A DNA stretch of 62,403 nt, the filler included. It is 6 parts of 6 records of this genome, joined end to end, with 100 filler letters (N's around TTAATTAATTAA, not from the genome) between each part and the next. Parts side by side here need not be neighbours in the genome. Positions count along the whole stretch, not along the records: positions 1 to 19,442 come from SRR2962707_2201; 5 more parts are not named here. One strand, written 5' to 3'. A model generated the notes under the pieces. That model was not told where the DNA came from, did no database searches, and saw only the letters and a list, made by a program, of their open reading frames with translations. Positions 1 to 29,354 of this stretch are shown here, one piece after another. Within the stretch, counting starts at the first letter, position 1. Every line of letters starts with the position of its first letter. Both the position numbers and the translations under genes were made by a program.

Positions 1-215
1 GCCCCCCCCCCCACCCCCCGTCCCCCCCCCCGCATCCCTCCCTCAAAACCCCGCCTCGGCTCCATCTCACCGCGAACAGCCCGCCTGTGAGAGTTGTGAT
101 CGGCGAGATTCGGCAGGCGAAGTGGTTGATGGTGCTAATGATGAACACGGGGCAATGACGCGTACGTTGGGCCCACCCATGTTGCCGAGCGACGCATGGT
201 GATACAGGACCGACT

Positions 216-3200
216 TCAAGACACAACCAGATAATCGAACTCTCCTTCCGTCGCTCTGGCGCCTCGTCGTCCTCCTGCCCCCGATGCTGCCGTTGGTGGC
301 AAGCCTGCCTTGTCTCCATTCGGATCTGCCTTTGCTTGGTGTTGCCGCGTCAACACACGTATCCACTGGCGGAAATTCCCAACGGCCTTATGCTTTGCGA
401 CGACGAATTTCTTCAACGAGGCGTCCGACACAACCGCTGATTTCTCGACCCAACCTTCCAGCTCGAAGTTGCCAACAGCATGATCGTGAGCCTCAACACA
501 TTCAAGTCCCGCTGCACATGCCTCTGCGAGTCCAGTACCATCACGAGCCTCGATTTGCAACATTCGAATGAACTCCACATGGGCCAACACGTCCAAAACC
601 ACCCGCCCAAGATCGGCACCGAAGAAACGCATGATCCGAGCGGCGCAGGGCAATTCTTGAAATTGCGCACGGACGTCCACCATCTTCAGCAACAATTCGG
701 AACTAGCGCAGGCATTATGCTCGCATGCTTTGCTTTGAAGCAAATGTGGAGATTCGGAAACAGGGTCGACGCAAACGGTTCGTTCTTTGCCATGTGCACC
801 GTGCGAGGTTGACAATCTGTTGTGCTTGCTGTGCACGCCTTGGGATCTTTCAGAGCTGTGCATAGATGCCATCGCATTGTCTGGGTCGAGCACGATATGC
901 CAGTCTATACCAAGAACTTGTGCTGCTTCCATAGGAATGGCATGAATGGCTTTGAGCACTTGAACGACTGGCAAATCTCTCGCCCATCCTTGTTGGCACG
1001 GCAACTCACATTCGAAATCGCCAGTAAATTTCCCCAACGGCTTATCCATGCCTCCGTGTTTGGCCAGCACCGCAAGAAGATCAAGATCCGCGCACACAAC
1101 AGCAATTTGAAGAACGGATAAGTGTCCAAAACAGGAAAGCGATTGTGTGTTTGGGCCGCCACCCCATGGTCCAGGATCTGCACCCGCGGCAAGTAAAGCT
1201 TTGACGCACTCGCAGTGCCCACCCAGCAAGGCGAGCTGCACAGGAGTTAAACCAACAGTGAGTTCACGAACAGAAAAGCCGTTACTGCCATGGATCAGAA
1301 GCTGTGTCGAAGTCAAAGCAATTGGGGGATGAATGGACATCGACGTTGGAATGTCCAACTGAGCATCGGCTTTGAGTAGCTTGGACACGACGTCAGTACA
1401 TCCCCAAAAGGAAGCCAAATGTAGCGGAGCCCAGCCCACAGCATTTTTTGCGTTGATTCTGAGCCAATCGAACTCGAGAAACATATCAACGATGTTCAGC
1501 TGCCTTTGGCCATAGTTTTCGTCGTAGTCAGTTCCATATGCGAAATTCACCAGATACCTTGGCGGCAACAAATTGGAACAGCAAACGTGTGATGACCGCC
1601 GAGATCACATTATGACGCCGAACAACAAAAAAGTCAATCAACAGTATCGCTGGGACATGATACAGCACTTACTGCACCGCACGAAACAATGGTGTGCAGC
1701 CAAGTTTATCTGGAGTGTTGAGCGGCGACACCAACACAGATGCTCCGTGCAAAAGTATCGAGCATAATTTAGGATCGCCATGCTGAACACCGATGTGTAA
1801 CGACGTTGCTCCGTCGCGGATCAAGCCCTGCTGATAGTCTGGAATGGGGTCAACATTGGAACAGAGAATCTGCACTGTCTCAGAGTGCCGACCAACTGCT
1901 GCAGCAACCAACGGCGACAACCCTCCTGAAGCAACATCATTAATTGATGCACCCAGCTCCAACAGAACACGAACGACTTTGACATGACCATGTGCCGCGG
2001 CAAGAATGAGTGGAGTGCACCCATTGCGATCGCGGCAATTGGGCTCTGTTCGGCGGCGAACAATAAAATCTCGAACCGCCACATCTTCACCTTCGGAAGA
2101 AAACCACAGCAAGCCTTCTGTGTCTGGCGACGACAGCGTACTGAGCGTGTCCAGGTTGTGCAAAACAAATTCCAAACGCTGCATGTACCTACATTTCGAA
2201 GGCATAGCCAATGCAGATTGGAACATTTACAGCGTGATGGGGCGATTTGAAATTTGAACTCTTGTCGTTGCTCTGCTCCCTCAACAAGCAGAGAATACCA
2301 TACCGGAATCGACTACGCATTTCAGTGCGATCGATTGTTCCCCCGCAGTCTCTATCACTCCGCATAAATTGCATTTCCAAGAACAAAGGGAAATACTGCG
2401 GTCCAAATTTTGCTAAAAATCCTCGTTCATTCAAGTAACTTTCCAAATCGCTGCGGGACAGCTCGAACTCTAAGAAGTCGCCTTTCGTGCAGCCCGATTG
2501 CTCGCTTTGTGGCACGTCTGGATTCGCGTAAAGTGTAGAATTGTGAGTGCCTTCGATTGGCTTGTCGACATCAGCATGGATCTGTTGTTGGGATTCTGTA
2601 GCCAACGGGTCTTCCCATGTGGAGCTCTGCCCATTTGTCCAGTACGCCACCAATCCACCACTACCGTCTGTAGTCTCTACCTTGTCCCACTTTAGGTTGC
2701 CTGTGTCGCGGTTGGTGCCATTTGCTTCGTTTCGTTGTTGCAACTGTGCACTGCAACCCGGGCGAATGTCGTAGCACCATTGAAACATGTCATCCAATTG
2801 GGATTGGATAAGTTTTGCATCTCCCTCAGTTCGAGCCCCAATGTTGTCGCTGTCGATTGTTAACGCGTCGTTGAGGGTAATATGATAAAGGTGGCCTAAA
2901 ATACTCTGCACTGCAATTTTTTCAGTGAAAACCGCTTTATGCCCTTGTGACATGTCAGCAGTAGCTGTCAGTGCAAATGGCGCACGCGCTCGATTGCTTT
3001 TCGCCGCATGTTCCGATGCAGAGGAAGGGACCGCTGCAGTACCCCTGTAGAAACACTTTTGGTCCGATGCCACAAGGCTTTCTAGAACATCAAAGTCCGC
3101 GGCAAAAGCTGCAACCATTTTCTCCGTCATAGTGTCCGCCAAGCGTGACATCCCTGTCCCTAGCATCAACGGCGTTACCGCATGGCTAGCGTTGGTTGTG

Positions 3201-6200
3201 ATGGACTGTGTCACGTGAATCATTGCAGTTTGAATGTTCTCTGAGTAAGGCAATTGCTGGGCACCCACTGCCAAAAGAAGGTCAACTATTGCGCGTTCCC
3301 CGTTGACGGCAGCAAAATATAGCGCGGAGCAGCCCCCGTCAGTGCGAATATTCACATCCACTCCCTGAGGAATGAGATTTGAGTGGCTCCCTTCAACAGC
3401 CTTACCTTCGTAGGGACGAGTAGTACGCGGTGTTGTGCTTTGTTCGCATAAGCACTGAACAACTTCAAAGTGAGAAAAACGAACGGCCAGATGCAATGCC
3501 GTCGCGCCAATGAAGTCTGTCATATCTCCCGTCCACGGCGCGCAAAAGAAAGTCGATGATGAGTCGACGTTGTCCCATTGTGAGTCGATGGCGCTGCTTT
3601 TGCAGGTCAAGTGGTGATTCGGCACACGGCCCACTACCCCTGCATTGACATCAAGCGACGCAATACTGCAAAGTATCTGCACAGCACTTAGATGCCCTCC
3701 GACTGCAGCAGCGTGGAGCGCAGTCACTCCATCCAGCCCTCGCGTATTCGGCCGGCAACGTGTTTCTGCAAGATCTACAATGGCACGGATAACCAATGCA
3801 TGGCCCGCACGAGCGGCTGCAATTAAGGCTGTTGTACCGCAGCCGCACTCAGTTTTCAACCCATTCACCGGGCGCCCTGCAACTTCGCGAGTGCCATGAG
3901 GAGGGCAATACAAAAATTTGCTTATGTTGGCATTTGAGTTGGTGCTGCACATGTCTGAGTGTGAGTTGTCAATGTAGTCAATTGCGGGTGATGCGTAAGC
4001 CACATTTGCAAAAAGTTTCTTGTTCGCGAGGTTCTCTCGTCGCTGCTGCTCAAGTAGCCATATTCGCTTCCGTTCCACATTTGCATCTGCGCAACGGCTG
4101 TTTGTGCGGCAGTCAACTTCGATTTCGGTGACTTGTTCAAGGATCGATTGATGGCGATCGACCAACTCAACAGCAGCGTTGTGAGCTAACACCGCTGATG
4201 CAAGCCTATCTTCTTGCACCTGCCTCGACTGTTTGGCAAACCCCAGTTTGGTGTCGCAGATTTTTTCCTGGTCTGTGTAGTGTTCGAGCTGCGCTTGACA
4301 CTGCTCAAGATGAGTTCGGGCCTGCGTTTTCAGTAAAATTGCAGAAATCAAGAGAAGGCACAGACTTACAGCAAAAACTTCAATGATCTTCGATTTGAAG
4401 ACTGTACCTGCACCGTGATTTTGCTTTGGATTTCGACAAATTGTTTTGCTTGCTGCCACTTGTTTATTTCTGATTCAGTCAGACGCCGCGTGCGACGCCG
4501 TCCAGTGCTGTCAACGACAACTGGTGACAATGCGTCTGCAGCAAGCTGCAACGTTGCCAGTTCGGTTTTGCAATCAGCAACTGCATGTTCAGCATCACGG
4601 ACATGCGCAGCAGCTTTTGCCACAGCTTGGGAAGCAGCTTTTGCTGCCTGCAACGCGGCACCTTCCTCATCGCAACGGCTGTTGAGCTCTTTTTCTTCCA
4701 ACCTAGGCACACCCGAAAAGCAAATTCAAAAAACGTTCAGGTGCTTGTACTTTACGTCTAGAACGCTACACATTTCAAAGGTTCATCCAACGAAAAAAAG
4801 CGAGATGTGCACTTCTCACCGCCTTTCGCTAGCTCTCCAATCTCGGGCCTTTTCCGACTCCAGCAATTGTGCTCGACACGCGTCCCGACGCTCAATAGCG
4901 CATTCCAAGGCCTTCAAGCGCGTATCGGCTTCTTTTGTGGCGGATGCAAGATCTTGCTTAGCACGCGCAGTTGCGGAGCGCTGCTGTTCGGCTCGAAAGT
5001 CATGAATTAACAAAAGCCACACGATGCGACCATACCCTAGCTGCGATGCAGCCAAGAGCGGAGTCCAAGCTTCTCGCCGCATGAATTCGATGCAGTCATC
5101 GTGGACCAATGGCCGGTGGTCTTCACTGCCATCAATCTCGACACTGCCTACACTGTCAACGTCGCCACCCTCAGAGTCCACACTCTTCCACTCTCTACTC
5201 CCTGCTGCGGAAACGGTATTGTTTGGCCGCACTCCAGAGCCAGGAAAAGTGAAATCCGCCTCATCAACGGTTTCAGTTTTTGGACGTAATGTTGCCGCGG
5301 CTCGACAGAATGCCAATGGCGGTCGATGTGGAATGTCCACAGAAACACCATGTTGCAAGAGGGCTCTGCAAACTGCCACTCGCCCAAGCCCAGCTGCAGC
5401 GAATAATGGAGTGACTTCAACTACAGCTTCAGAAAGTGGCACACTGTGAATCAGTGCAAAATATTCAGACTGTGATAGTTTCGAAATCGGCGACGAGCGG
5501 CTGCACTCAATTGATGGCGTTCTTGCAATTTCTAACAGAGGCCCAAAGTTGTACACACCATCCGGAACAAATCCATCTACGTACAGACTGCGCCGACATT
5601 CGACGGCATTATCTGTCAACATCGAATAAGTGAACCTTTCGAATACCGACATGTCCGTTGTTCGGGTTGAAAAACATATCCCTTGTTTGTTCATTTGCCG
5701 GTGCTTCAATGACAAAAGTATTCGACGAAACGAGTTCAGGGCAAAGTTGTTTGCTTCTTCTTGTTTACCCGCATCATCTGTGTGGGAGAGGATGTGGCAT
5801 GCACAACGCGCAAGATCGCTGACTGAAAGGCGTACTTGACGTGGATGACGCAAAGACTCGAGTTCTGCTCTCGCAGGAGAATTTCCTACTGCTAAGTCTG
5901 TTTGCCGGTCAATAGACCACCCACACTCATGTGGATGCAATTCAATCTGGCTCCGAGGCCCCATGGATTTTTTTTGAGCTGAACAGCTTGCGAAAGAGGC
6001 TGATTCATGACCAAACAGGCGGATAGTGTCATGGAGCTTGCGCGTAAGTCCGCACAACTGATCATTCACCTGAGGTAGGCATTCTGCGAGGAAATTTGTT
6101 TGTATGTAGGCTTTTAATATGCCTATCGGGCACAGAGCGTCGAGGTCACTGCCGCCACACACAAGCAATTCAAACGTCTGACGATGCCCATGCAGAAGCG

Positions 6201-9200
6201 CAATCATTGCATCTGTAGGACTCTCCCCTGGCGATGCCAACGATCCCTGATGAGATTCGATGCGCGTACAATCGTCACTTTCAGGAGAAGCCATAGCACC
6301 CGTAGTTATCGAAGCGAAAGGTTCAGGTTGTCCCAATCGACTGAAAAGCACAAGTGGAAACCCTGAGCTGTTTGCAAGCATCATCTCATGTTGCGCATGC
6401 CGAGCGCTGGCGTCTTGTGACATTTGGGCATTGTCGCCCCACGCCAACTCTTCGTCCGACAAAACCAACATGTCGTTGATTGCGACAAATGGGTCCATTG
6501 GCAAGGCTTTTCGACGAAGCAGCGACTCGTATACAAACACAAAAGAGGCGGTCTGCTCGTGCGCGCCGCAATCGATGAGTGCCAATCCGGGTCGACCACA
6601 CAAATCCGGTAATGCACCGGCTTGAAGCAGCAATTTCGCGCATCCCGCGTGTCCTGCGGCAGCTGCTTTGCGCAAAGGTGTCATACGGTCGTAATATCGG
6701 GCAGGACATGGGCGGTTGGGATCGGCCTTGGCCGCAAGAACTTGCTGTGCTACTTTGGCACAATTGCGCATGATACATGCGTACAGAGGCGTCAGCCCGC
6801 GGTGCGTGCATGCGTTGGGGTTGGCGGTGGCATGCAAAAGCGATGAGACAGCGCTGCCAAAGTTGTTCGCGCAGGCCACAACCAGCGGCGTTGAAAACTC
6901 CCCAAATTTTGGGCAAGGAGAATCCAAAGCTAATCCAGTCGAAATACCATCTGCGAGGACAAATTCGTCATTGTCGAGAACTCCTGATGCAGTGTTGAGA
7001 GACCAGTCGTAGCTTCCAGTGGTTGCATTGAGGCGGGAACCGGTCTCAGAACCATCCATGGTCTGGGTGGCAGATCCGTACTCGGGTGCTGAGCTTGGCG
7101 GTACTGAGCAGAGGAAGTCCAACATGACGCGTAAGCACGCTGCATTTTTCCGATTAGATGCAAGCAGCAAGGGGGTTGCGCCATCCGACTCGCGAGGTTG
7201 CAACGGATCTGCTGCAGCGTCTCGAACCAATCGTGCTGATGCTTTTGTCTCCTCCATGAGATGGTCGTGGCTTTGGTTTAATGCTTCTTGCCGACTGATA
7301 ACAGGTACAGGACCGCCTGGCCAGTCATGCGCTGCCGATGGTGGGGCGAGCAAGATTCGAACAATATTGACATTGTGGAGCGCTTCATGCAGGGCAGTCT
7401 GACCTGTGCTGTTGTAGGATTTTGCGTTTGGCTGAGCACGTAGTTGTAGCAAGATTCTGACGCAGCGAAGGTAGTTGAGACGCACCGCCACCATCAACGC
7501 AGTCATTCCATTGGCCAAAACCACTTTCCCTCGTTCCTTTACGTCCCGCTTCACTGGATGAAGAGTTTCTTTGAGAAGACTGTCCTCTGGAGTCGTTTGG
7601 GTGCGAACCAGCCATCGTTGCAGCGACTGGGGCACTGTGGTGCTGCAGTGTGCATCAAATCTTGAGTCAACTTCAACATGTGCGGATGTAGACAGAACAG
7701 CCACTAGTAAGGCCTTTGCGGCGATACAATCTTCATCGAATCCATTTTTTGCCGACGGCTCACTCAATCCAGTAGATTTAACTCCGGCTGAATCGGAAAG
7801 CGCAGCCGCTCGAAGAAGTATGTTCACGAAAACGTTGCTTTGTTTCGTAGCGGGTACGAACGCAACATTTGAGCTTTGCATGGTTTGGCGATGAGTATTA
7901 GGCGTCGTGCTGAGTCCAGTCAGAGACCCATTTGGTTTAAGTCGTTTGTAATGCAGCAATGCCCTAAAACTCACAACAAATGATCTTATAACGTGCTCCA
8001 GCAGAGAGATGTCCTTAACGTTGATTCGCAGCATCGCCTTGCGCTCGGCAGAAGACTTGGTGTCGTGGAATTCAGATGCTGCAAAAGCAGATACGTCAAA
8101 GTAGTAGCGGTCTCCTGAGAACTGTTGGCTCCAGCTGAACCGACGCACGCTGCACTCAACAAGCTCTGAAAACTCAATAAAGCTGCTCTTCAAGTCGCTG
8201 GCGTTATTCATCGACTTGATTCTCGACCATTCTTCCCGTGCAAGTTCCTCCACCTCTTTGTGCAATTGCTTGGCGCGCAAATGGCAGCAAATTTCTTCGA
8301 AGTTCAAGGTTGCGCAATTTTCGGAAACACCGCCTCGGGTGTTGTGACTCATGGGTTCATCTGATTCATTGCTTTCAACAATTCTAGTGTTCATGCGCTC
8401 CATTTCAGCGATACTCTGCAACCCTGGGTCTGTTTCCAAAATATCAAAATCTACCCCAAGGACATCTTCGAGATCAATATTGAACTTCAAACGTAGTAGC
8501 TCAAGTACGGTCAAACCCTGTGCTGAAGCACTATTTGATTGAACTTGAGCACAACGTCGCAAACTGGCTGTGCCAAAGCAGCCAGCAGGACAGCATGAAA
8601 ACGGGAGAAATCTCGCTTCAGTGTTGAGGTAACCATCTACAGCAAGACGCTGCAGCAATAAAAAGTCACCAAATTCTGCCGCCAAAAAGGCTGCATGTGA
8701 TAAATTGCCCCAGGAAGACCGCTGTTGGTCTTGACTACCCTGAGAACTTGGGTTTGGGTCAATACTGAGTGGTCTTCCATTTGTAAGCTCAAAGGCGCGC
8801 CAATGACCATTGACAATTGTGTCGAAGCAATTTTGCCGGCGTTTCCACGAAGGCAGTAGCAGGCTATCAAACTTAGGTTCGGCAAAAGCACCTTTGCGGC
8901 CACACGGAATGCATACAACCGCTAACTGAATTGCCGTGTACGGATAAGAATCCAGGGCCCCGAAGGATGATGAAGCTTCGTTCTCATTGGTTCGTGACTC
9001 TTGAATGAATAGTTGGCCCAGCGGATTCGCCAACAAGGATGCTTTCCCAACACGTGTTCCATCAGCATTGTTTGAAGCTGTTGATGTGACAGATACGACT
9101 GCACTGGCTTCGCTCCTGGTTGTCGCAGTGCGAGTCATTTTCGATGGAAACAACAATGCATTGAGCACAGCGTTATGTCCAAAGCGAACTGCCAGGTGAA

Positions 9201-12200
9201 TTGCAGCACTATGCACTGCACCTGTTGTGCGGTCGGAAACAGTGGCACCGTGTTCTTGCAGTTTGGTGACAATTTGCGCAGATCCACAACGGGCAGCAAT
9301 TATGAGAGGTGAAATGCCCATGTTATCGGTCACATTAGGATGGGATTTGGCCTGTAGAAGCATTGCCACAATGCGAATATTTCCCTCTGCAGCAGCAATG
9401 TGCAAAGGGTACAGCCCATTCCGTGTATGCGCGTCGTTCAAGAGATATTCCATTGTGCTTTCAGTCAAAACGTTGGCGTGCTCATCAAAGAGTCGCTTGA
9501 TCAACCGAATGTGCCCACCAAACACTGCAAGCGTCAATAATGAATTGCCGTCCAATGCTTGGTAATGCGCATTGGCTTTCATTTGAAGCAACGCGGTCAC
9601 TGCTTCAATATTTCCATAGACTGCTGCAGACAGCAGTGGTGTGTGCTCAACAGCAGTTTCGATACAATCAATTTGGACAAACGGGTATCCTGATTTTTGC
9701 TGTTCCTGAAGAAGAGCGAATTTGGATCTCGCAACGTGCGCCAGGTGAGCTTGCTCACTTCTTTTTGATGTAAGCTTGCATGCCACGCACTGCAAGCTAC
9801 CCAAGATATCATTGCGTGTCGCCAATTTCGCTTGCAGTGTTTTCTCCTTGATTGAGAATGAATCTTCAAGCACCTTCTGTGATTTTTCCAGATTCGCAAG
9901 ATCCATGCGCTCATCTTTGAGAAAATCCTTTTGAAGATTGAGGTCCCTGTACAGCGCCTTTCGATTGGCCTCTGTCACCTTAGCCTTCTTAATTTCTTCC
10001 TCTTCGAACTCAATGGCAGTTTCGAGGTCAGCAATGGCAGCACGCTGCGCGCCAATGACCTTGTTCTGCTCGTCCCATCGAACAGAGTACTGCATGTGTA
10101 ATGTTTCCAAGTGCATCTTGATCTCCGCAGCAACCACAAGTTGTGCCTCAATGTCAGCCTCAAGCATGCAGAGCCGGTTAGTCGTCAAGACTTTGCTCGA
10201 CACGTTTTTTCGCACAGCTTCTGCTTGGAGCGCTAACTGACGACAAACGCGATGTTCCAGTAACAATTCCATTTGAGTCACATCATTTCGCCGAGCTGCA
10301 TTAAAAACTTCTCCATGCAACTTCTTTACATGTCTGCAAAAGAGGCGCACAGAAAAAAAAATGGCACGATCGCCCAACCGTGAAGCAAGATTGAGAGAAC
10401 ACTAAAAAGCAGATCCAAAATGCCTGTGCCGTTCACGAAAGTTCAACGCAAGAAACGTACAAGCGACGCTCCCAATCGCCGGGAAGTCCCAAAGCAAATT
10501 GTTGTACAAGTGCAAGTTTGCGACTTTTTTCGTCTGATACAGCTTCGATATTGGGTTCATCCATCGATGGCTGGTTTGCAGGAACAACGACCTTCACCAC
10601 CCCACCGTTAATGCGCACAGTGGTCTCAAGAATGTCTTTGACGGAGTAAGCTTCACTGGCGAGTCGGCTGCGACGGATTCGAGCAATCAAGTGCAACCTT
10701 TTCAGCCGCTCAAATACTCCGCCGGAAGTGAATTCCTCCAGTGTGACATTTTCATCACCATCGACATCAATTCGGTTGTACCTGCGCGCAAAACACGGAA
10801 GTGGATCACTGTCAACGCCTAAGCCGACGCAGACCTTGAACAAAATGTGATGACATTGAAGCACACACTTACAGAATGACCGACAGCCGTTCAAAAAGAA
10901 TCCCATAAAGATCTTTAAAACCGAGAGCCTCCAAGAAAATGCGAAATTCCTCTGGGTCAATTGTGCCCCCACCGTCAAGATCAACCTTATTGAATATTGC
11001 TTCGGCAGCTCGACGTTGTTCAACATCCCATGTGGCCTCTGTTGTCGCATCATCGTCCATGTGATTCGCTGCCGACACACTCGCAGTCACGGCCGAAACC
11101 TCCCGTGTCTCTTCCCATAGATTCCGGATGAATTTTTCTTCTTGTGCGGCAACACGATTTAAAGAAAGCACTTCGCCAAGGCCTCCATTTATTCCATGTA
11201 CTGAAACGATGATATCGTCAAGGAAAGCACGAACTGCATGCGAAACGCGCCGAACTTCTCTCCAGCGCGGATTCGTTGCTAACAGCAGCTGCCCAAGCAA
11301 GCTGAACTCTCCAGCCCGTGCTGCTACCGCAAGCTCTGATGTGTCCGAGGAGTTTACGCCCTTGCAAGGGATCGCGTTCCATCGAAGCAACGCATTTATG
11401 ACATCCGAGTAGCCAACGTCAACAGCCACGCCAAGAACAGTTCCTACAATCATTCAAACACAGGCAACGGCATTATGTTCGAGGAAGTGAAAATAATATT
11501 CATATGGAAGCGCTTTCAGTTGTGTTTCATTGTGTATGCGCAACCCACGTCCTCCATCCACGTCAGGCCTTGAGCTTCCTTCATTCGCATTTGCACCAGC
11601 CGCGAGCAACAATTCCACAGCATGAACATCACGCTGATGCACTGCGACTCGTAATGGAGACCAAGTTTGGGGTCCCAGCTTTTCACTGCCGTTGGGATTT
11701 GCTCGTCCTTCGCCTAAGAGAACCCGCATGACATCGTGATTTCCACCGACGCTTGCCAGTAAGAGGGGTGTTGATGCATCACCCGCAATAGCTTCGACGT
11801 CTGCCTTATGCTGAATCAATATTCTTGCTACGTTCATATGCCCGAAATCAGCTGCAACATGCAGTGGAGTGTATCCGTCGTTGTACTTGCAGTTAACATA
11901 CCTTCCACGAGCAAAAGCAAGACACTATAAACTACATTCAAGCGCTCGTTCAAGGCAAAACAACACGGCACACAATGGGAGGTTGGACATACTTGGACAC
12001 CTGTGCATCATTATTAGTTTGCCTTCGCTCTCCTGTTCGGCGCGCAGCTGCTAACGCCAATGACATCTCTGCCTCTTCCTGGCTTCTCAGCAAATGTTCC
12101 ACCTTTCCTTCGTCCCCTTGCTCGACGGCTTTGAGTAGTCTCTTGGCAATCTTGTCATCGCTGCCAGTAGCACGCAATCCAATCGATGCTGCAAGTGCAG

Positions 12201-15200
12201 CGGCATTTTTCGGACTACCTCGATTCAGTAAAGCCTTTGAAGCATTTTCTGAAAGCCACTTTTGATCTGACAAGTCGGTACGTTGCACCACCGCACGTAC
12301 AAAGTGCATGTGCGCATAAAAGCACTCCTCCCCGCTTGCGGATGCTGCCTGCCGTGCAAGATGTGCACGGAGAGTGCCTTCTCCGTACAGCAGTCGGAGA
12401 GCCACAAGCTCATGAAGGTGGGTTTCAAAGGTTTGGAAAAAATCTTCACACCTAAAAGGTTTTGCCTCCCACTCGGCTGCATTCGGGGCTTCTACGTCAT
12501 GTTTCGGAGGAGGCACCCCGGTTCCACCTAAAAATTGAAGGAGTTGCAGCGCGCCGCACTTCACCGCGGGATCATGGCGCTTGTCTGCCATTGTGTGAAA
12601 TCTTCGCTCCAGAAGAGTGACTGACATGTCAAACAGAGCGGGCACCGTTGATGTTGATTCTGACTTGGCTCCATGTGACTCAGAGGGCATCGTTCCCGCC
12701 GTAACGGCGGCATCCGAGCTCGCTGTCTGGTCGCGACAACTCATGTCATCACACTTGCTTAAATAAGATTCGAGCAGAGTGCGGGAGAAATTCCCTGTAT
12801 GTGATGCATCGTATTTTTGAAACTCGAAATACACGTGCTGTTGATCGCGCATGGAGCGAATTTTGGCGATGATGCGTCGCAGTACGCCACCGGGCGTCCC
12901 ATCATCAACAGCATATGTCGTGTTTGAAGCGCTCCCCGACAAGCCTGAATGCTTCGCGGCGGCTGGAAATGAACCTGTCCCAAAAATTTGTTCCGTAGTG
13001 CGGCCGAACGCACTCAAAAGCAACGTATCAGCAACTACAGCAGTGATTGCGGCTGCATTGCCGCTCTGACAAGCTTCCGAACGAAACACATTGTCCATCG
13101 CAAAGTCGGTTGCTCCTGTCACCTCCAATATTTTCTGCAAGGCCTCAAAGTTGCCCAAAAGCACAGCAAGTTTAAGTTCGGCAAACGGGGAGTCCGCACA
13201 GAAATTCATGAGGCGCTCATCTCGAGTGAAGGAACTGTCAAAGATGGCGTGGCTTTTGTCAATAGTTGCCGACAGCAAGTCTTCGTCCTGAGTATTATAC
13301 GCCTTGGTTATAATTTCATGTGAGTCATGTTGCTCCTTCACCTGAACGGTCAGCAATGATTTTATCATCTCGATTGCGTAGGGCAGATTATACTGCAGGG
13401 CTGCGCCAGCTTCTAAGAGAAGAATCGAAATCTCTGTGTACCCCCTCATCAGTGCAACTTGCAACGGGGAACGAAAGGCATGACCTGCACTTGCAGAGAG
13501 TTCTACGTTGGGCGAAGCACGAGCTTGAAGCAGCAAGTCCACGATTGATGTTTCACCAAGATACCTTTCACGTCGGCCACAGTGTACACAGTTGGCAATT
13601 TGAAAGCACAACAACCAAAGGAACAGCGCAATACGGCAAGGACAATGGGTGAAAAGCGCAAAACTAGGAATGTCAACACTCGATGAGCACCGGAGCTTTT
13701 GACTTACACAGCTTTCGAGAGGGCGGTATTGCCGCCACTGGGAAGTGTGCAGAACAAGTCGTCAACGACATCTAACTTCGCCCGCGCTGGCCCAACAAGA
13801 AAGCGAAGTACTGCAAGCTTTCGTTGCTCCACAGCCACTAAAAGAGCTGAAAAGTTCAGTCCTGTGGCTACCACCATATCACTGTGCGGCTGTTTACCGT
13901 GGAGGCTATCTCCAGCACATGACAGGCTTAAATCCGAAACGCAGACTGTGGTGCCCGCCGGGTCCACCACTGGACTCATCAATGTTTCGTTCGCATCGGC
14001 ACGAGCGCTAATGAGATGTTCGACAACTGATTGCCGACCGAAAGCCACTGCAAAAAAAATTGGTGGAACTCGTAACATGCAATGCCGGGTTTGAAGTCGT
14101 TCGTGTGCGTGTGTGATGAGCGATTGTGCAGATTCCATGTGTGGCTTCAGTGGAAACGGGGCAAGCCTTCCATTGGGATCAACGTTCTGAGACTCGATCA
14201 AACGCTTCACAGTGCGAATCACTTGGTCATCAGACAAATCAGGCGTTGCGATTGCTCGCAAGAGTTGCAGCGCATTGCGTTGGTCACGCTTTGCAACTAA
14301 TACCGGCACTTTAGCGCTGTGCTGAAACGGTTCGGCGAGTGAATTGTTGTTCGTGGAGAGATCCGGATTCGACAGGGTTGGAGAAACCCTGCCGTGCGTT
14401 GGTGCCATGACGGAGACAGACGAGCGCATCCGCGACTTCGGTGAGGGGGACCCTCCCAAGCGTGCTTTTAGTGGTTTCAACATTCGCGGAGAGCGCGGCC
14501 GGCCGTGTGGGTGCTTTCCGAGAAGGCCTGCGTCTTGGCGGTCGTGGCGTTGCTCTTGCTGCTGCTGGTTTTGAAGCAGCAAGCTTTGAAAATCTTTTTC
14601 CTGCTGTTGTGCCTCGGCTGCAGCGGTGTTTGCGGCGTAGCCGCGCTGAAGCGTTTCAAATCTACGCCCGACACACAACAGCGGTAAAAAGAGTCAGAAC
14701 GCTTCGCCCGGGAAGTGCTTCAATAATAATGCCAACGGCAAAATTCTGAGGTCAACGATACTTACCTCTCAAAATGAAGAGCAAAGTGATCAAATCGCAC
14801 GCCCTGGTTCGCAAAAGCAGCATCGAGCCGGCTGTCGGCAGAAGATTGCGATGGCACTTTCATCGGCATGCTTTCATATGCTCGATGTGGATTTTGCGCT
14901 GTTGATAAATGCGCCTCGCAGCTTTTTTTAGGGGAGCTAGGCCGCGTATCAGCAGCCCGAAGAAACCCAGCCTTCCAAAGCCAAGGCCAACTCATGCGAA
15001 TGAATTCAGCCTGAACGTATGCATTCCAGCATCGATGAAACGAGTTGCGGCTTGCAACACCTGACAGCCAGTGTTCAAGCTGCTTCCAGCCGAGTCGGCG
15101 CTGAGCAATGCACTGGTGAACCCATTTTGAGTTCAAAGATCCAGGCACGCCGGCATCAGGAAAAAGTGGGATTCCAAGGCGCAATTTTTCCAACACAGCG

Positions 15201-18200
15201 ACAGCCTCTAGTTTTCCGTGCACATCACATTGCAGTAAAGTTCCTGCCCACGCAACAGCAGCTTGATGAATACGATTGGCTTTCAAACGTCCTGGCTGCT
15301 TCTTCGTACCGCTTGTCGTGCTGATGGTCTGCATTATGGCGTTTGCGGCCTGCAAGTTCAGCGGTTTTAAGCCCCGAAGCTGTTGAGACGAAATTTCATT
15401 GCCAAAATTCATCGTGCCACGTGTCTTGATGGTGGGCATTTCCAGCCGCTGGAAGCACGCCTGTTGTCTTGGCATGTTGTATTTTCCATCGTCTAAACGA
15501 TTCACTGGATGGGAGTCGTTGAAGGTAAGTGTGTGCCCTCTCCCAATCACATCCAATATTCTGACTCCATGCGCACGTTGGAGAATATCATCCACCGTTT
15601 CGTGTCGTGTGTTGCGACGTTGATCGAGTTTCCATTCGACCACACGATCGGCTTTGTGGGTATGATTGTTAGAGGAGGTGCTTTCTGATTGCAGCTTATT
15701 AGGCGAACAAATTCGTTGTTCGTGACCCACTTCATGCGCATCACGAGTGAATTCTTCAACGTTTTTGGCATACACCGCAAGCGTATACAAGTCACGACAA
15801 TATGCAAGTATCATTGGAACAGTTAGTCTCAACCGCCCGAATCGCGGGCCGTTGGAGTCTGCAAGTTCGGCACGAATAACATGCTGCTGCTCTAACAACA
15901 ACCTCGTTGTCGTCAAATCGCCCTTCAACATGGCAATCTGCGCACCAAGCAAACAAAAGTGGCTCAAAAGTGCAATGCAATGACCACCTGACAAGAACAA
16001 GTTAACCCAGCAGCTCTGACCTGAAGAGGAGACGGGCCTCCTCGCGGAGAAATCGTACAATCAGCCTTTGCGGACACAAGCATCCGTGTGCAGAGGGTAT
16101 CACCGCTCCCTATGCTTGTTGCAACTGCATCAAGCAGAGCCGTTCGTCCGTCACGGGCGCGCCAATCAACAGGACATTTGGCTGCAATCAAGAGTCGAAC
16201 AACCTGCGTCCGACCAACAACACGGCAAAGAGCATGTACACGCATCCACCAAGAAAGAAACTGCCCATTACCCTCACTGGTAGGAGGCAACCGGGCGCAC
16301 TGAACACACACGCATAAAGCACATGAAGCGCACACCTCGGCATGGCCGTAAAGCGCAGCTTCATGCAAAGCCGTCCTTCCATGGCAGTTGGTAAGACGCA
16401 AACCACAGCTTGATCGACGGTCTGGCCTCACAAATTTCATCACGGCGCCAATGCGCCCCCATGATGCTGCAATCATCAAAGCGTGTCCACCATCAAATGC
16501 ATTTGCATCCTGAACGCTGCAATTTGCATTGAAATCGCTTAAAAGCACATCGACCACAGCTGCTCGGCCATGCAGCGCAGCAACCATGAGAGCTGAGCAA
16601 AATATTTCTTCAGCAGGAGCCTTTTCGTGAGCGGCCTTCGCATCTGCAAATTTGGACGCTACTTCAGCGGATGTCCGAGCAAACCACACACGCTTGTCGA
16701 CTTCCTCTAGTGATTCGTCATTGTATCTGATTCCACGGTAAGTGCGAAAAGCGAATTGACTAAACCAGAAGCAGAAATGGCAACTCAACGGTTGAAACAG
16801 AATGTCGGTGTGCTTCAAGTTACAAACGTACTCGAAAAAGCTTCCCTTGATCGTACGCACTGGGTCTATGAAAGGAAATATCAGCGGGAACATGACAAGT
16901 CGATTAACATCCGTGGCAGGCAGTCGGCATGCTGCAATGAGTTTATCAATGCTTCCATTTGCGGCGAATCCTATAATAGTACGTTGGCGGTGCAAATGCA
17001 ATGCAGCAACTTCGCGCTGTGCATGGCAGAGAAAGTCCCGCACATGCAAAACTACGTCCCATCCAGCTACCGGAAAGGGCAGAGAAGAAATATTTTGTTG
17101 TTCACCCGGCATCGCAAAAAAATCCAATTCCCAACAAGTCATCCACTCGTCAAACAAGGTCATTTCAGTTCGTGCACGCTCCATCTCTTCAAGCAGTTGA
17201 AATTCGGTTTGGGGTGGCAGCAACTCACGGCGCCGCTTCATCCTAAGCTCTTTTTCGCACTCCCAACGCCTACGGTGTTCAACGATTCGGGATCGAGCAC
17301 TCAACCTATGTGCGAGTGCCGCGGCAACCCTACGGCAGCCAGGATAGAGCATCGAATTCGTAGCATTGATGTACGCTGCCACATCTGCACCACCTGCAAA
17401 GGAGGAATCGCCCACAAAAAGCTCAGAAAAGAGATTGTGCAACGGCGTCCCTCCAAGGAGCGCTTCAGACGCTGGAGCAGCAACAATCAGGTGGAGAATT
17501 TGCTCAATAGCTTCGACCAGCGCGGCAGGGTTAATAAATTGCAACCTCATCAACTTTGGGGAAGTAGGTGCGTTTTCGCCTGCATCATGTACGTAGTTTG
17601 CATTGGTATCGTGCAACAACTTGTGAGCGCTAAACATGTCGATGAGCTTTTCTTCAATGTCGCTCGTCGGCGCCGATGAGGTGCGCAAAGGCCCCCTTTT
17701 TCCTTGAGAAGTGCCCATCGTTTGCGAAACAGAACGTTGAGCATTGGTTGCAGCGGATGGCGGGACCACCGCCTGAAAGGATGGGTGAATTTGGTACCAA
17801 CACCAATAACATCGTTGGGGCTGCCCACGCTCATCGAGTCTCAGCCATTGGTTGTCAGTGGCGCCTTGCACATCCCTCGAGCTTGTGCCCTTTTCTGCAC
17901 GGCTTTGGGTTCGATGATATGTGGGGTCACCCGCGCCAACTTGAGCGGAAAACGTACGAGCGGCGTAGAAATGCGAACTTAACTCGGTCAAACTGACTTT
18001 GTACAGTTCCAACAACGTGGCTGCAGTGGAGGCAGCCAGATTTTCCTCCGTCGCACAGCTCTGCACTTTGCTGACACCGTCCCTCGTCGAAGTACAGATA
18101 CGAGCATTGCGACGGTAGTATCGGCCGCCAGGTGAAAGAAGGCACAGCATTTCAAAATCTGCGGTGTGCGTCAAGAACAAGCAAAGCTTCTGCATGCGCT

Positions 18201-19071
18201 GTGACCGCACGCGCGCACCAGCAAAGTGAAGGTCCCTAACCATCGCTGCGAGCCCACATTCAACTGCAAACTCGACCTCCTGAAAACGAGTTGTGGTTGC
18301 ACCCGCTTCCACAAGAACAGCAACTATGTAGGAGTTTCCAAAACGTGCAGCCTCGCCCAGTGCTTCTTCAAAATCACGATGCCGTGCTTCGAGTTCTTCG
18401 GATGCACGCAGCCTATCTACGTAGGCGTTCACCAATGCTGAGCAGACACGTGCGTGACCATTGCGGGCTGAATATGCGAGTGCTGTGTGCCCGTACTTAT
18501 CCCGTAAGGTAATATCAACACGACGATTGTTCGCCAAGTACTGTGAAACGCTTGAACTCCCACATTCTGCCGCGAGAACCAGTGGTGGTGCGCGTCGAAC
18601 GCAAAACGACAAGCAATTTGGATTCAGTCCAACACCTTCGACAAAAAATTTTACAGCTGTGACGCGGTCGAGCTCCGCCGCAAGCAGGCACAATCTCTGC
18701 CGCCCATGAAGACGTCGCAGGAAACTTTGCACCGCATTGGTCACTCTTCGTCCCGCGTTGCAGACAACGCACCCATTCCGAGTCCTCACACACCACGGAG
18801 TCGAATGGTTCGCAAGGCTATCAATTGATGCAGCTCCCTTGCCTGCATCACCACCGCCACTCGTATTGGAATCTTGATGTCGTGCGAGGGGCAAGTTTGC
18901 TAAGATATCGCCCTCATCGGCGGGGATATTCGCCTGCAGGTACGCAGCCGCCCGCCCTTCGTGGCCGTTGAAAGCCTTGAGAGTTTGCAAAACGGCAGTC
19001 TTCGGCAGCTGTGGAAACTTCGCGGCGAGTGCCCGAAGCCGGCCCTCGACTCCAGCTGGGGCCGAAGGCAT
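216..19071 (-). CDS. Giant multi-exon ankyrin-repeat protein (~5,824 aa predicted) with N-terminal CUE-like domain, EF-hands, WW domain and coiled coils
   Basis: Eukaryotic. Manually inferred GT-AG introns (+ coordinates): 16760-16831, 16204-16335, 15938-16020, 14662-14765, 13565-13707, 11902-11992, 11444-11548, 10782-10872, 10334-10460, 4703-4819, 4322-4407, 2189-2303, 1558-1672. Removing them (1381 nt) from 18856 nt leaves 17475 nt = 5825 codons. Several junctions rebuild motifs: SPLQ|IAMLKGD, TALSKAV|YLGETSIVDLLL, GHAE|VVRLLIAAKC, K|YVNCKYNDGYTPLHVAADFGH. There are many ankyrin motifs (TPLLSAAVYGN, YPLHIAAAEGN, TALHAAAVGGH, TPLILAAAHGH). The 3' end at 216 is the ORF stop and could instead be another intron. 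Confidence 0.8.
2606..2692 (-). other. WW-like domain within the giant protein
   Basis: KWDKVETTDGSGGLVAYWTNGQSSTWEDP has the W...YW.N...STWEDP signature. Confidence 0.65.
10733..10982 (-). other. EF-hand pair within the giant protein, split by an intron
   Basis: Loops are DLDGGGTIDPEE (10947-10982) and DVDGDENVTLEE (10733-10768), each followed by F. They are joined across intron 10782-10872. Confidence 0.75.
18928..19050 (-). other. CUE-like ubiquitin-binding domain at the N-terminus of the giant protein
   Basis: LRALAAKFPQLPKTAVLQTLKAFNGHEGRAAAYL matches the CUE pattern: L..FP.l...v...L...nG...A..LL-like. Confidence 0.65.
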
Positions 19072-19418
19072 TGTTCCTGTCGATTAATACCGGTATGCCC
19101 AGCTTACAAGAAGTCATATTCAATACCTCGAGTCATTCTGATGTTGGTGCGGCAAGCAGCTTCTGTTCAGGCAGCGAAAGCTGCGGCTGCGCAGGCCACT
19201 CCTCAAATTGCTCTGAACTGGCAAGAGCAAGAAGATTGGCAGACGAATCAACAAATCAGGACGCGACGCTCCAACGAAGGAAAGGGCTGTGTGTGGACGA
19301 AAGTGGAGATGCTGCCTCGCAGCATCCAGAATCGCGAGCACGGATATATCCGTGTCACAGCGAGCCACCCTCGTCTGGGCAGAGCACAAACGGAAACAAG
19401 CAGGAAAAGTCGAACGAA

Positions 19419-19442
19419 AACAACAACAACAACAACAACAAC
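19419..19442. repeat. (AAC)8 microsatellite at contig end
   Basis: Read directly; it abuts the spacer. Confidence 0.95.
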
Positions 19443-19542
19443 NNNNNNNNNNNNNNNNNNNNNNNNNNNNNNNNNNNNNNNNNNNNTTAATTAATTAANN
19501 NNNNNNNNNNNNNNNNNNNNNNNNNNNNNNNNNNNNNNNNNN
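19443..19542. other. Artificial contig-joining spacer (44N-TTAATTAATTAA-44N)
   Basis: An identical 100-nt spacer with stops in all six frames occurs five times in the window. Confidence 0.99.
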
Positions 19543-20868
19543 GGCGGGCGAGAAGAAGTGCAGGCCGATCACGGCTTCGGGCCGCTTCACTGCCGTCGCG
19601 ATTTCGTCGATGTTCAAGGCCGAGGTGTTCGTCGCGAGGATCGCGCCTTGCTTCACGATCTTGTCGAGTTTGCCGAACACGTCCTTCTTCACGTCCATGT
19701 TCTCGAACACGGCCTCGATCACGAGGTCGCTGTCGGCGAGATCGTTCATGTCGAGCGAGCCGGTCAGAAGCCCCATGCGCTTCTCGACTTCCTCCATGGA
19801 GAAGCGGCCCTTCTTCGCGGAGTTCTCATAGTTCTTGCGGATCGTTGCGATGCCCCGGTCGAGCGCTTCCTGTTTCGTTTCAACGATGGTCACGGGGATG
19901 CCGGTATTCAGAAAGTTCATGGCGATGCCGCCGCCCATCGTGCCCGCGCCGATGATGCCGACCTTGTTCACCGGGATGATCGGCGTTTCCTTCGGCACGT
20001 CCGGCAGCTTCCAGACCTGGCGTTCGGCGAAGAAGACGTGGCGCTGCGCGGCGGACTGCGTGCCCGTCACGAGTTCGCGGAAGAGTTTCTGCTCGACCTT
20101 GATGCCTTCCTCGAAGGGCAGGTTCACCGCCGCCTCGATGCACTGGATGTTGTATTCCGGCGCGAGGAAGCCGCGCGTCTTGCGGGCGATGCTTTTGCGG
20201 AAATTCTCGAAGATCTCCGGGTGCCCGCGCGCTGCTTCGACCTTGTCGTTCAGGTCGCGCACCTTTTTCAGCGGGCGCTTCTCGGCGACGACCTTCTTCG
20301 CGAAGGCCACAGCGCCCTCGCGCAGTTTGCCTTCTTCCGCCAGCTCGTCGACGAGACCCATTTCCAGGCATTTCTTCGCACCGACATGTTGGCCGCTCGT
20401 CACCATTTCGAGCGCCTTTTCGGGGCCGACGATGCGAGGCAGGCGCTGCGTGCCGCCCGCGCCCGGCAGCAGGCCGAGGTTCACTTCCGGCAATCCGCAT
20501 TTCGCGGAAGGCACCGCCACGCGGTAGTGACAGGTCAGCGCCACTTCGAGGCCGCCGCCCAGCGCCGTGCCGTGGATCGCGGCGACGACGGGCTTCGTGC
20601 CGAATTCGATCATCTGCAGCGCGTCGAACAGGCTCGGGCCTTTCGGCGCCTTGCCGAACTCGGTGATGTCCGCGCCGGCGATGAAAGTGCGGCCTTCGCA
20701 GATCAGCACGATCGCCTTCACGGCGTCATTGTCGATCGCGGCCTTCACGCCGTTGTTGATGCCTTCGCGCACGGGCGCGGAGAGGGCGTTCACGGGCGGC
20801 GAATTGAGGGTCACGACGGCGATTTCGCCGTCGATCTCAAGCGTGGTGACATCGTTGATCGCAGTCAT
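19543..20868 (-). CDS. Bifunctional enoyl-CoA hydratase / 3-hydroxyacyl-CoA dehydrogenase (FadB/FadJ-like), 3'-truncated by contig end
   Basis: Crotonase motifs FIAGADI, ALGGGLE and PEVNLGLLPGAGGTQRLPR. The NAD-binding domain has GIIGAGTMGGGIA, IEAVFE, ATNTS and GLHFFSPA. An AGGGAG RBS precedes the ATG. Confidence 0.95.
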
Positions 20869-20912
20869 GGGCGCTCCCTGCCATTTATCGTTCTGGATTG
20901 TTGTTGACGGGG

Positions 20913-20941
20913 ATTATAGCGCCGTGCCCGCGCGGCGTCAC
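20913..20941 (-). promoter_or_regulatory. Putative sigma70 promoter of the FadB-like gene
   Basis: Minus strand GTGACG-N17-TATAAT, about 45 nt upstream of the ATG at 20868. Confidence 0.5.
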
Positions 20942-21317
20942 CAGCCGCTATGTGCAGTTGCGTGCGGGCGCCGGTCCGGGCCTGAACAGGTGAGCGCCGG
21001 CGTGCCAGGCTTCGGGCGGCGCTCTCTGCGGGCGAGGCGGAAAGGTGACGCGAGAGGAAGGAAAAGCGAGAGGCGAGGCCCGGACAGTCGCCGCCAGTGC
21101 AGCGCGGAAGCGCCCGCCTCGCAAGACCCCCGTGCCGACATCATCGCCGCCGCAGCGCGGCTCTTCCGCGCTCGACATGCAGAAGAAAGCCGAAGCGGCA
21201 AAGCCCTGAACGGTTCATTCTGCCACACTCCCGCAGGGGGAGGGTGAAGGTGCCCTCTGGATTCTCTCCGGCAGCGCAATACATTGGTGGAAAGCGGCAA
21301 ACGAGGGAGAGAGATCC

Positions 21318-22634
21318 ATGAGCGAAGAGAATGTAGCGATCGGCCGGGACTACACGCGCAGCAATGCGGAACTGGCGGCGCGATGGAAGATCGACGTCAA
21401 CCGCGATCCCTGGTCGATCCCGCTGGAAGAACTCGATCCCGCGCATGACGAGCTTTTCGGCGCGAACAAGGTGCTGCCCTATTTCGAACGGCTGAGGAAA
21501 GAAGACCCGGTTCACCTGAACGAGACCGGGCCCTATGGCCGCTACTGGTCGATCACAAAATATGAAGACATCATGTTCGTGGATACGAACCACAAGCTCT
21601 TCTCCTCCGACATCCGCAATGGCGGCATCCGCCTCGGCGGGTTGCCGCTCGAAGGCGAGCCCGATCCGCTCACCTATCTGCCCATGTTCATCATGGAAGA
21701 CCCGCCCAAGCATGACGAGCAGCGCAAGGTCGTGCAGCCTATGTTCACGCCGCAGAACCTCGCCGATCTCGAGCCCGTCATCCGCGAGCGCGCGGGCCTC
21801 ATTCTTGACGATCTGCCGCGCGGCGAGGAATTCAACTGGGTACGCCAGGTTTCGGTCGAGCTCACCGGCCGCACGCTCGCCACGCTGTTCAACGTGCCGC
21901 AGGAGGACAGGCACAAGCTCATCCACTGGTCGGACACGGTGGAGCGGATCGGCGACCCGGAATATTTCGAGACACCGGAAGACGCCTTCAAGGAACTCTG
22001 GAACTGCTGGGAATATTTCGATGCCGTCTGGAAGGACCGGCTGGAGAACCCCGGTTCCGACCTCATCTCCATGATGGCGCATGGCGAGTCGACGAAGAAC
22101 ATGCCGCCCAACGAATATCTCGGCAACATGCTGCTGCTGATCGTTGGCGGCAACGACACGACGCGCAATTCCATCACCGGCGGCGTGCTCGCGCTCAACC
22201 AGCATCGGGACGAATACAAGAAGCTGAAGGACAACCCGGATATCATTCCGAACATGGTGTCGGAAATTATCCGCTGGCAGAGCCCGGTCACGCATATGTG
22301 CCGCACGGCGATGGAAGATGTGGAAGTTCGCGGCAAGACCATCAAGAAGGGCGACAAGGTCGCCATGTGGTACGTCTCGGGCAATCGAGACGACGAGAAG
22401 ATCGAGCGCGCGAATGAATTTCTGATCGATCGCGAGGGCGCCCGTCAGCATCTTTCCTTCGGCTTCGGCATTCACCGCTGTATCGGTAACCGCGTCGGCG
22501 AAATGCAGCTCCGGATTCTCTGGGAAGAGATCATGAAGCGGTTCAGCGATGTCGAAGTCACGGGCGATCCGAAATACCTCCGCTCGAACTTCATTCGCGG
22601 CATCACCGAGCTTCCCGTCATCGTCCACGAATAG
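21318..22634 (+). CDS. Cytochrome P450, CYP153-like (alkane/fatty-acid terminal hydroxylase family)
   Basis: Motifs MFIMEDPPKHD, I-helix LLIVGGNDTTRNS, ExxR (EIIRWQSP) and heme ligand HLSFGFGIHRCIG. A GAGGGAG RBS is present. Confidence 0.93.
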   Translation: MSEENVAIGRDYTRSNAELAARWKIDVNRDPWSIPLEELDPAHDELFGANKVLPYFERLRKEDPVHLNETGPYGRYWSITKYEDIMFVDTNHKLFSSDIRNGGIRLGGLPLEGEPDPLTYLPMFIMEDPPKHDEQRKVVQPMFTPQNLADLEPVIRERAGLILDDLPRGEEFNWVRQVSVELTGRTLATLFNVPQEDRHKLIHWSDTVERIGDPEYFETPEDAFKELWNCWEYFDAVWKDRLENPGSDLISMMAHGESTKNMPPNEYLGNMLLLIVGGNDTTRNSITGGVLALNQHRDEYKKLKDNPDIIPNMVSEIIRWQSPVTHMCRTAMEDVEVRGKTIKKGDKVAMWYVSGNRDDEKIERANEFLIDREGARQHLSFGFGIHRCIGNRVGEMQLRILWEEIMKRFSDVEVTGDPKYLRSNFIRGITELPVIVHE

Positions 22635-22845
22635 GGGCAGGGGCGGGGCCGTTCCCCGCGTGGGTTTCGTCGCGTAAGCCGCGGATTTCTGCGGTGCGGC
22701 GTTCACCCGCGATCAGCGCCGGGTGCGCCTTCGTACAGCCGCCGCGGATTTTGTCATAGCGCGGGCCTCCGCCCGCCGTGCTAGATTGACCTCAACAGAA
22801 ATCACGGAAATCAGGGAAGGGGCGCTCCGGCGTCTCTCGATCATT

Positions 22846-23790: not shown

Positions 23791-23798
23791 GGCGCGCG

Positions 23799-25235: not shown

Positions 25236-25499
25236 GTTCCCCGCCGCTGCATTGCGGGAAGTCTTTTCATAACGAAGTGCGCCGGCGCGTCTCGTGTGAC
25301 GTTGCCTTGTCGTTTCTGCGACAGGGCCTGTCCCACCTAGGCAAATGCCTTTGCTCCCGTTAAACTTTGTCCCATTCTGGGGCGGGCTTCCCGGAAGCCT
25401 GCGGGCATGTTGTCTGCAACGACGTGATGAAACAGGGCCCTGAGCGGTACGTTATGTGCCAAATCGGGTCATTTGCTTGCGTTGAGTATTGGGGGCGAA

Positions 25500-26522: not shown

Positions 26523-26535
26523 GCCACGGCGCACC

Positions 26536-27765: not shown

Positions 27766-27894
27766 CCATGAAGACAGGCAGAGATTGAGCTTTTCGGCCT
27801 CAGCGGGGATGATGCATCAAAGCCGTCATGCCCCCCTGATGGCTAGTGTAGGCGACATGCGCGTGCGTGATGCGCGTGCGGGTATCGGGGCGGC

Positions 27895-29346: not shown

Positions 29347-29354
29347 GGAAACCC

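Follow-up and report, generated by a model that had tools for sequence, protein, structure and literature searches.

The locus considered here raises the question of whether a giant protein, built of ankyrin-repeat blocks separated by long linkers, arose through repeated duplication of one larger unit. It lies in SRR2962707_2201, positions 1-19442 of the window (the whole stretch of DNA that was analysed, 62,403 nucleotides (nt) including filler), and the region is one spliced, expressed giant ankyrin-repeat gene of a microbial eukaryote, encoded on the minus strand. Its 5,813 amino acids (aa) contain nine blocks of ankyrin repeats, with long linkers of poor conservation between them, and two long helical stretches. 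Pfam Ank families (PF00023/PF12796) matched eight of 11 open reading frame (ORF) pieces (six above the curated cut-off and two below it), a model built from the protein itself (in-protein ANK model) detected 26 repeats, and block 4 of an ortholog scored 64 bits against Pfam ankyrin. A first-pass annotation had expected a single giant protein with many ankyrin blocks, which the Pfam Ank matches and the open spliced frame bear out, and had also proposed that each block is followed by a motif X, a motif Y, and, in most units, an EF-hand-like pair. The account that we favor, and to which we give somewhat better than an even chance, is that, in this scaffold gene, a unit of the form "ankyrin block + Y + EF pair" was duplicated internally long ago and its copies have decayed unevenly. 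For units 3-7, such an ancient and heavily decayed duplication is plausible; for units 1-2, it is unproven (units are numbered with their ankyrin blocks).

Similarity among the post-ankyrin linkers

The linkers were compared by profile-profile alignment (hhalign) with ortholog rows added and motif X removed, each profile consisting of only 2-3 rows. The 10 pairs among units 3-7 gave P values from 0.0013 to 0.56 (median 0.14) and 35 pairs with control linkers gave a median of 0.58; the two sets differed by a Mann-Whitney test (p = 1.4e-4), and Fisher's combined values were 2.4e-4 and 0.90, respectively. Within the EF region, unit 6 aligned with unit 4 at P = 0.0013 and with unit 3 at P = 0.033. 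Taken together, these comparisons weakly suggest that the post-ankyrin linkers of units 3-7 share a collective homology.

All seven X, seven Y, and six helix/EF strings listed in the first-pass annotation were found, by eye in minus-strand translations, in the order and at about the places given there, and one of them does span an intron, as had been stated (in unit 4). Motif X, presented as an unnamed motif, has a more familiar identity. In searches with a model of the X copies, the next-best matches after X were canonical ankyrin repeats, in register, and phmmer placed X4 of the ortholog onto the repeats of human ankyrin (4rlv), the last repeat included, which identifies motif X, at the level of sequence, as the last ankyrin repeat of each block. 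Two results count against this identification: none of the seven X windows, searched alone, had a Pfam match, and the in-protein ANK model (26 repeats, X masked) scored X1-X7 only mildly above 3,000 control windows (p = 0.155, 0.531, 0.041, 0.05, 0.15, 0.277, and 0.094, respectively). Only in units 4-7 does X form a distinct, recognisable subtype, with an acidic residue plus Phe/Leu at the usual Gly-His position; the left-out copy ranked first protein-wide in four of seven leave-one-out tests (X4-X7), ahead of about 26 canonical repeats.

For motif Y, the evidence weakly suggests a short helical island related across units 2, 4, 5, 6, and 7. When linkers were aligned by the Smith-Waterman method with shuffles (ankyrin repeats and X excluded), the best alignment fell on Y-Y in four of 21 unit pairs (5-7, 6-7, 5-6, and 2-4) and partly in a fifth (1-5), and the top alignments of units 5, 6, and 7 shared the same windows. 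Y5 was also in register with Y7 and with Y6 in hhalign, and with per-unit profiles of ortholog pairs another Y was the best non-self match in three of five cases (Y4 to Y2, Y5 to Y7, and Y6 to Y5). Y lies about 35-70 residues after X in units 2, 4, 5, 6, and 7, and in the C-terminal units the succession of ankyrin block, X, and Y is genuine. The seven proposed copies start at nt 18024, 15598, 13032, 11225, 8514, 2917, and 974, thus 2426, 2566, 1807, 2711, 5597, and 1943 nt apart, in agreement with the anticipated spacing of 1.8-2.7 kilobases and one double gap. Two of these copies have to be withdrawn: Y1, not covered by ortholog sequence, was never recovered in leave-one-out, Y5/6/7-profile, or ortholog-profile tests, and the ortholog profile of Y3 best matched an ankyrin stretch (aa 3743-3767, E = 0.014). 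An AlphaFold2 model of the Y6 island (12 rows, namely seven units and five ortholog pieces) consisted of three helices with a mean predicted local distance difference test (pLDDT) score of 76; it had no match in the Protein Data Bank (PDB) at E <= 0.001 by Foldseek (five rows at E 3-9), and a wide VIA-align search gave a best Z of 4.3 and no chain at Z >= 5, with common helical arrangements only. No known fold can thus be assigned to Y, for which a UBA/CUE-like or helix-hairpin-helix nature would be speculative. The model of the whole of unit 6 (two rows, mean pLDDT 35.5) was unusable.

The canonical 12-residue Ca2+-binding loop of EF-hands is captured by a PROSITE-like pattern, which matched exactly at aa 2443 and 5178 and with one mismatch at aa 2484, and nowhere else in the 5,813 residues; the ortholog has these loops as well. 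Unit 4 scored 27.2 bits against Pfam EF-hand_1 (cut-off 25.4), its pair in the intron-free ortholog scored 32.6 against EF-hand_7 (PF13499, cut-off 30), and unit 6 matched EF-hand_6 weakly (E = 0.037). The unit 4 EF-hand was the one non-ankyrin family detected in the 11 ORF pieces and the sole Pfam match among 12 non-ankyrin segments, the relevant matches of ten short pieces (EF-like, WW-like, and N-terminal) were confined to units 4 and 6, and no Pfam EF-hand (PF13499/PF00036) was found in units 1, 2, 3, 5, and 7. Genuine EF-hands are hence confined to unit 4, which has a pair, and unit 6, which has one canonical loop, consistent with the earlier remark that only some copies keep Ca2+-type loops. 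Unit 3 has no Pfam match for its putative pair and its loop lacks the last acidic residue; the alignment of both of its halves with the unit 4 pair (hhalign P = 0.027) weakly suggests a decayed EF pair. The idea of an EF-hand-like pair in most units is thus not borne out: unit 4 has a pair, unit 6 a single loop, and unit 3 a putative decayed pair, and none was found in units 1, 2, 5, and 7 by Pfam or the in-protein profile; the EF-like helices proposed in units 2, 5, and 7 matched no EF model. Two of these helices, E2 (nt 14966-15034, aa 1240-1262) and E7 (nt 510-602, aa 5686-5716), have a five-residue identical core in common.

A scan of metagenome contigs yielded two relatives (L001 and L002). 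The first carries an uninterrupted frame of 2,957 codons and then one of 1,250 codons, which together align to aa 1143-5813 at 37% identity; the longer frame covers aa 1143-4516 without an intron, a part in which the window gene has six. Identity to the ortholog is 30% in the background (non-ankyrin, non-motif) and 56% in ankyrin repeats, and it reaches 95% in X6, 90% in EF6b, 88% in Y6, 80% in EF4a, 71% in EF4b, 70% in E2, 65% in X4, and 58% each in Y4, Y7, and E7. Considering that these values exceed the background, most, not all, of the motifs are islands under selection. In a third taxon (L002; P0003 and P0005), an intron interrupts the Y6 island: the end of P0005 and the start of P0003 both fall within Y, and at aa 5000/5001 the L002 matches pass into another frame. 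Searching the unit 6 linker against 1.84 billion representatives returned six proteins: one was the protein itself, one was P0002 (a partial ortholog of 1,240 residues), three were short fragments of orthologs, and the last was spurious, a low-complexity repeat. A search with the N-terminal 746 aa found only the protein itself, a search of genome contigs found no relative, and a look-up of the unit 7 linker in the Atlas gave no usable match.

Duplication weighed against other origins

A number of results weigh against an origin of the linkers by duplication. No single hhalign pair passed P = 0.001, the 10 unit pairs behind the Mann-Whitney p value depend on one another and are unlike the control linkers in composition, and units 6 and 7 aligned at P = 0.26 with ortholog rows included. 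The left-out Y was the best match in only one of seven tests (Y2, E = 0.13), and iterative searches from each Y linked only Y5 and Y7 (E = 0.009, one of seven seeds). An unbiased star-motif search (one per sequence, seven linkers, 40 shuffles) did not choose Y, and its z scores of 1.8, 0.9, and 2.8 (widths 16, 20, and 24) were not clearly above the shuffles. A profile of the EF regions of units 4 and 6 detected no additional copy in the protein (best E = 1.3), so that units 1, 2, 3, 5, and 7 gave nothing, and the ortholog identities of Y3 (33%, about background) and of the helix proposed as E5 (18%) show no island there. Smith-Waterman alignments reached p < 0.01 in one of 28 pairs (units 5-7, on Y, p = 8e-4) and p < 0.05 in two, and 14 of the 15 off-diagonal matches in self-BLAST were ankyrin on ankyrin.

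Much of this would be expected if there were no super-repeat beyond the ankyrin repeats. The linkers would then be unrelated, Y and the EF-like helices would be amphipathic helices picked by eye from linkers of about 400 residues, only Y5/Y7 and the EF loops of units 4 and 6 would be truly similar, and X would recur because every block ends in an ankyrin repeat. The poor recovery of Y in the leave-one-out and star-motif tests, the empty search with the EF profile together with the absence of Pfam EF-hands from five of seven units, the units 6-7 alignment, and the scarcity of significant Smith-Waterman pairs all fit such an account. However, the hhalign P values between units are shifted low relative to the 35 control pairs, the top alignments of units 5, 6, and 7 fall on the same windows, another Y is the best match for three of five Y profiles, X4-X7 outrank about 26 canonical repeats in leave-one-out tests, and the pair in unit 3 matches that in unit 4 over both halves. 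We regard this account as a serious possibility that is nonetheless rather improbable. Of the tandem amplification of an ankyrin-helical-EF module proposed in the first-pass annotation, the weak linker similarity among units 3-7 survives; most single-sequence tests failed. The degenerate eighth unit suspected in the double gap did not hold up, its only hint being an hhalign P of 0.042 between U5b and U6; no X or Y copy was found after block 5b by the model of all seven X or the Y5/6/7 model.

A second alternative is that only the ankyrin repeats were duplicated, and that the unit 4 EF pair, the unit 6 EF loop with a neighbouring WW-like piece, and the Y islands were separate acquisitions, through insertion or shuffling, the repeated unit having never held an EF module. 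Canonical loops in only two units, a WW-like piece in unit 6 alone, and a Y-to-EF distance that varies from about 70 to about 190 residues are in line with separate gains. They are, however, difficult to reconcile with the alignment of the unit 3 decayed pair with unit 4 in both halves, with that of the unit 6 EF region with both unit 4 and unit 3, and with the order ankyrin - Y - EF, which is constant wherever both are present, and we consider this alternative unlikely.

Under the duplication account that we favor, the "ankyrin block + Y + EF pair" unit would have been duplicated long ago, and the linkers would have decayed strongly afterwards, so that only islands under selection remain recognisable. 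The protein may act as a multivalent protein-binding scaffold whose ankyrin blocks bind partners, and two or three of its linkers might respond to Ca2+. A bolder version holds that Y and the mostly decayed EF pair constitute an undescribed, lineage-restricted "post-ankyrin" module that was amplified at least five times in one protein: a new domain family with copies at successive stages of Ca2+-binding loss and a Y helix kept by selection, perhaps in a docking or autoregulatory role at the adjacent ankyrin groove. This version we advance tentatively and think doubtful.

Gene model, setting and remaining features

Long reading frames on the minus strand span nt 19083 to 216. Eleven stretches of 86-143 nt were skipped in contigs of run X2 and read through in contigs of run X1; all 11 have CT..AC ends on the plus strand, that is, GT..AG on the minus strand. 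The contigs of run X2, which was taken as RNA by guess only, were used for the splice joints. A twelfth intron (nt 1558-1672) comes from a loose X2 contig end at nt 1670 that maps to nt 1540-1554, and a further intron (nt 15938-16020) is inferred, being required to keep the frame, and restores an ankyrin repeat. The spliced frame has no internal stop over its 5,813 codons, and its C-terminal splice pattern and protein end match P0002. An artefact, either neighbouring paralogous genes read as one or a misassembly, to which the inferred intron, the lack of any single contig spanning the whole gene, and the concatenation of the window from a mixed assembly could point, is very improbable in view of the single open spliced frame, the contigs of two runs that cover all 30 bins, the stop-free ortholog frame of 2,957 codons across units 2-5c followed by that of 1,250 codons, and the presence of the same protein pieces in the database on a 2.3-Mb contig.

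The window is composed of six stretches joined by five synthetic gaps, each of 44 N, TTAATTAATTAA, and 44 N, with stops in all frames, and is therefore no contiguous locus. Everything reported above falls wholly within stretch 1 (G+C about 51%). Stretches 2 and 3 (nt 19543-38883; G+C of stretch 2, 60-66%) contain bacterial-type genes, which means that eukaryotic and bacterial DNA occur together in the assembly, without consequence for the ankyrin gene. Stretch 1 starts with a poly-C tract (nt 1-40) and ends with an (ACA)n microsatellite (nt 19407-19442). Depth in the bin of nt 1-649 is very high in runs X2 and X3, most likely because of the low-complexity tract. An Rfam scan of nt 1-19442 gave no match.

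Several minor features of the protein (Table 1) were noticed by eye. The WW-like stretch of unit 6 is partly conserved in three taxa, forms two strands in the poor unit 6 model, and is absent from other units; a Pfam search for the WW domain (PF00397) in aa 5060-5100 and 400-445 returned no family up to E = 10. The N-terminus (nt 18950-19071, aa 1-40) looks CUE/UBA-like by eye, and neither aa 1-60 nor aa 1-120 had a Pfam match. No Pfam match was obtained in the charged helical stretches either.

Table 1. Positions of the gene, its elements, and other features in the window (nt, nucleotide positions; aa, residues of the spliced protein)
Feature	Position (nt)	Strand	Residues (aa)	Remarks
Whole coding region	216..19071	-		14 exons, 5,813 codons plus stop; ATG at 19071, stop 216-218
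Exons 1-5	16832-19071, 16336-16726, 16021-16203, 14766-15937, 13708-14661	-		
Exons 6-10	11993-13564, 11549-11901, 10873-11443, 10461-10781, 4820-10333	-		
Exons 11-14	4408-4702, 2304-4321, 1673-2188, 216-1557	-		
Ankyrin block 1	18136..18594	-	160-312	Pfam Ank; in-protein model matches at aa 194-216 and 237-258; ends in X1
Ankyrin block 2	15773..16611	-	786-993	Pfam and in-protein model; crosses two introns; ends in X2
Ankyrin block 3	13129..14075	-	1525-1792	Pfam and in-protein model; holds X3
Ankyrin block 4	11283..11888	-	2176-2342	Pfam and in-protein model; holds X4
Ankyrin block 5	8644..9657	-	2812-3149	Pfam and in-protein model; holds X5
Ankyrin block 5b	6601..7521	-	3524-3830	Pfam and in-protein model
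Ankyrin block 5c	4996..5427	-	4222-4365	Pfam and in-protein model
Ankyrin block 6	3077..3850	-	4680-4937	Pfam and in-protein model; holds X6
Ankyrin block 7	1065..2034	-	5247-5531	Pfam and in-protein model; crosses one intron; holds X7
X1	18136-18177	-		leave-one-out rank 20, not recovered
X2	15773-15808	-		leave-one-out rank 29
X3	13129-13170	-		leave-one-out rank 15
X4	11283-11330	-		leave-one-out rank 1, E 0.11
X5	8644-8691	-		leave-one-out rank 1, E 0.21
X6	3077-3121	-		leave-one-out rank 1, E 0.0086
X7	1065-1109	-		leave-one-out rank 1, E 5.8e-6
Proposed Y1	17977..18024	-	350-365	unsupported as a Y copy
Y2 island	15542..15598	-	1052-1070	best outside match of the Y5/6/7 profile with orthologs (E 0.14) and the Y4 profile (E 0.73)
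Proposed Y3	12979..13032	-	1825-1842	more likely a decayed ankyrin repeat
Y4 island	11166..11225	-	2362-2381	best Smith-Waterman alignment of linkers 2-4 falls here
Y5 island	8455..8514	-	3193-3212	Smith-Waterman against unit 7, p 8e-4
Y6 island	2858..2917	-	4991-5010	
Y7 island	906..974	-	5562-5584	linked to Y5
Unit 3 putative decayed EF pair	12550..12837	-	1890-1985	
Unit 4 EF-hand pair	10703..11012	-	2433-2505	split by intron 10782-10872; loop 1 canonical, loop 2 one mismatch
Unit 6 EF region	2309..2479	-	5137-5193	one canonical loop at aa 5178; 90% identical in ortholog
WW-like stretch, unit 6	2606..2692	-	5066-5094	between Y6 and the EF region; by eye only
Charged helical, coiled-coil-like stretch before block 5	9691..10323	-	2590-2800	by eye
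Second charged helical, coiled-coil-like stretch	4028-4983	-	4370-4620	by eye
Enoyl-CoA hydratase/3-hydroxyacyl-CoA dehydrogenase fusion	19543-20868	-		
CoxE-like VWA protein	23799-25235	+		
AcrB-type RND pump	33354-36521	+		
Synthetic spacers	19443-19542, 31931-32030, 38884-38983, 47193-47292, 54312-54411			stops in all frames

Known architectures and meaning of the finding

True ankyrins carry ZU5, UPA, and death domains, none of which was found here by Pfam in the ORF pieces and non-ankyrin segments. Like the human ankyrins (4rlv, the 24-repeat membrane-binding domain), the protein has blocks of 33-residue repeats that match Pfam Ank families, and block 4 of the ortholog aligns to ankyrin repeats at E = 1.7e-57, with X4 on a repeat; unlike them, it distributes its repeats over nine separate blocks with long linkers, and the closing repeat of units 4-7 is a separate subtype. 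Among EF-hand pair proteins (PF13499), the unit 4 pair of the ortholog, which passes the family cut-off, matches PDB entries from an Entamoeba CaBP (E = 5.8e-11) to calmodulins (about 4e-5). In contrast to these proteins, the pair here forms part of a linker in a giant protein, the matches extend over no more than the 70 residues of the pair and leave out Y, and other units have lost their loops.

The first-pass annotation did not recognise the architecture as a described family, yet ankyrin repeats and EF-hands are a known combination: ANKEF1 has one EF-hand domain between two ANK domains (ANK - EF - ANK; PMC12747526). The same order occurs here in units 3-4-5 and 6-7, a likeness of architecture. 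The protein here is much larger than ANKEF1, and the search with its unit 6 linker retrieved itself and four ortholog pieces and thus no wider family.

As it stands, the finding is mainly one of annotation, namely a giant ankyrin/EF-hand scaffold that is expressed and lineage-restricted and belongs to a little-studied marine eukaryote; of the three motifs first regarded as new, two turn out to be known elements, or noise in several units. If the repeated unit is real, a composite module of a repeat block, a helical island, and a Ca2+ sensor would have been amplified and then unevenly decayed within one gene, and Y would be an unnamed conserved island to be added to the elements that accompany ankyrin blocks.

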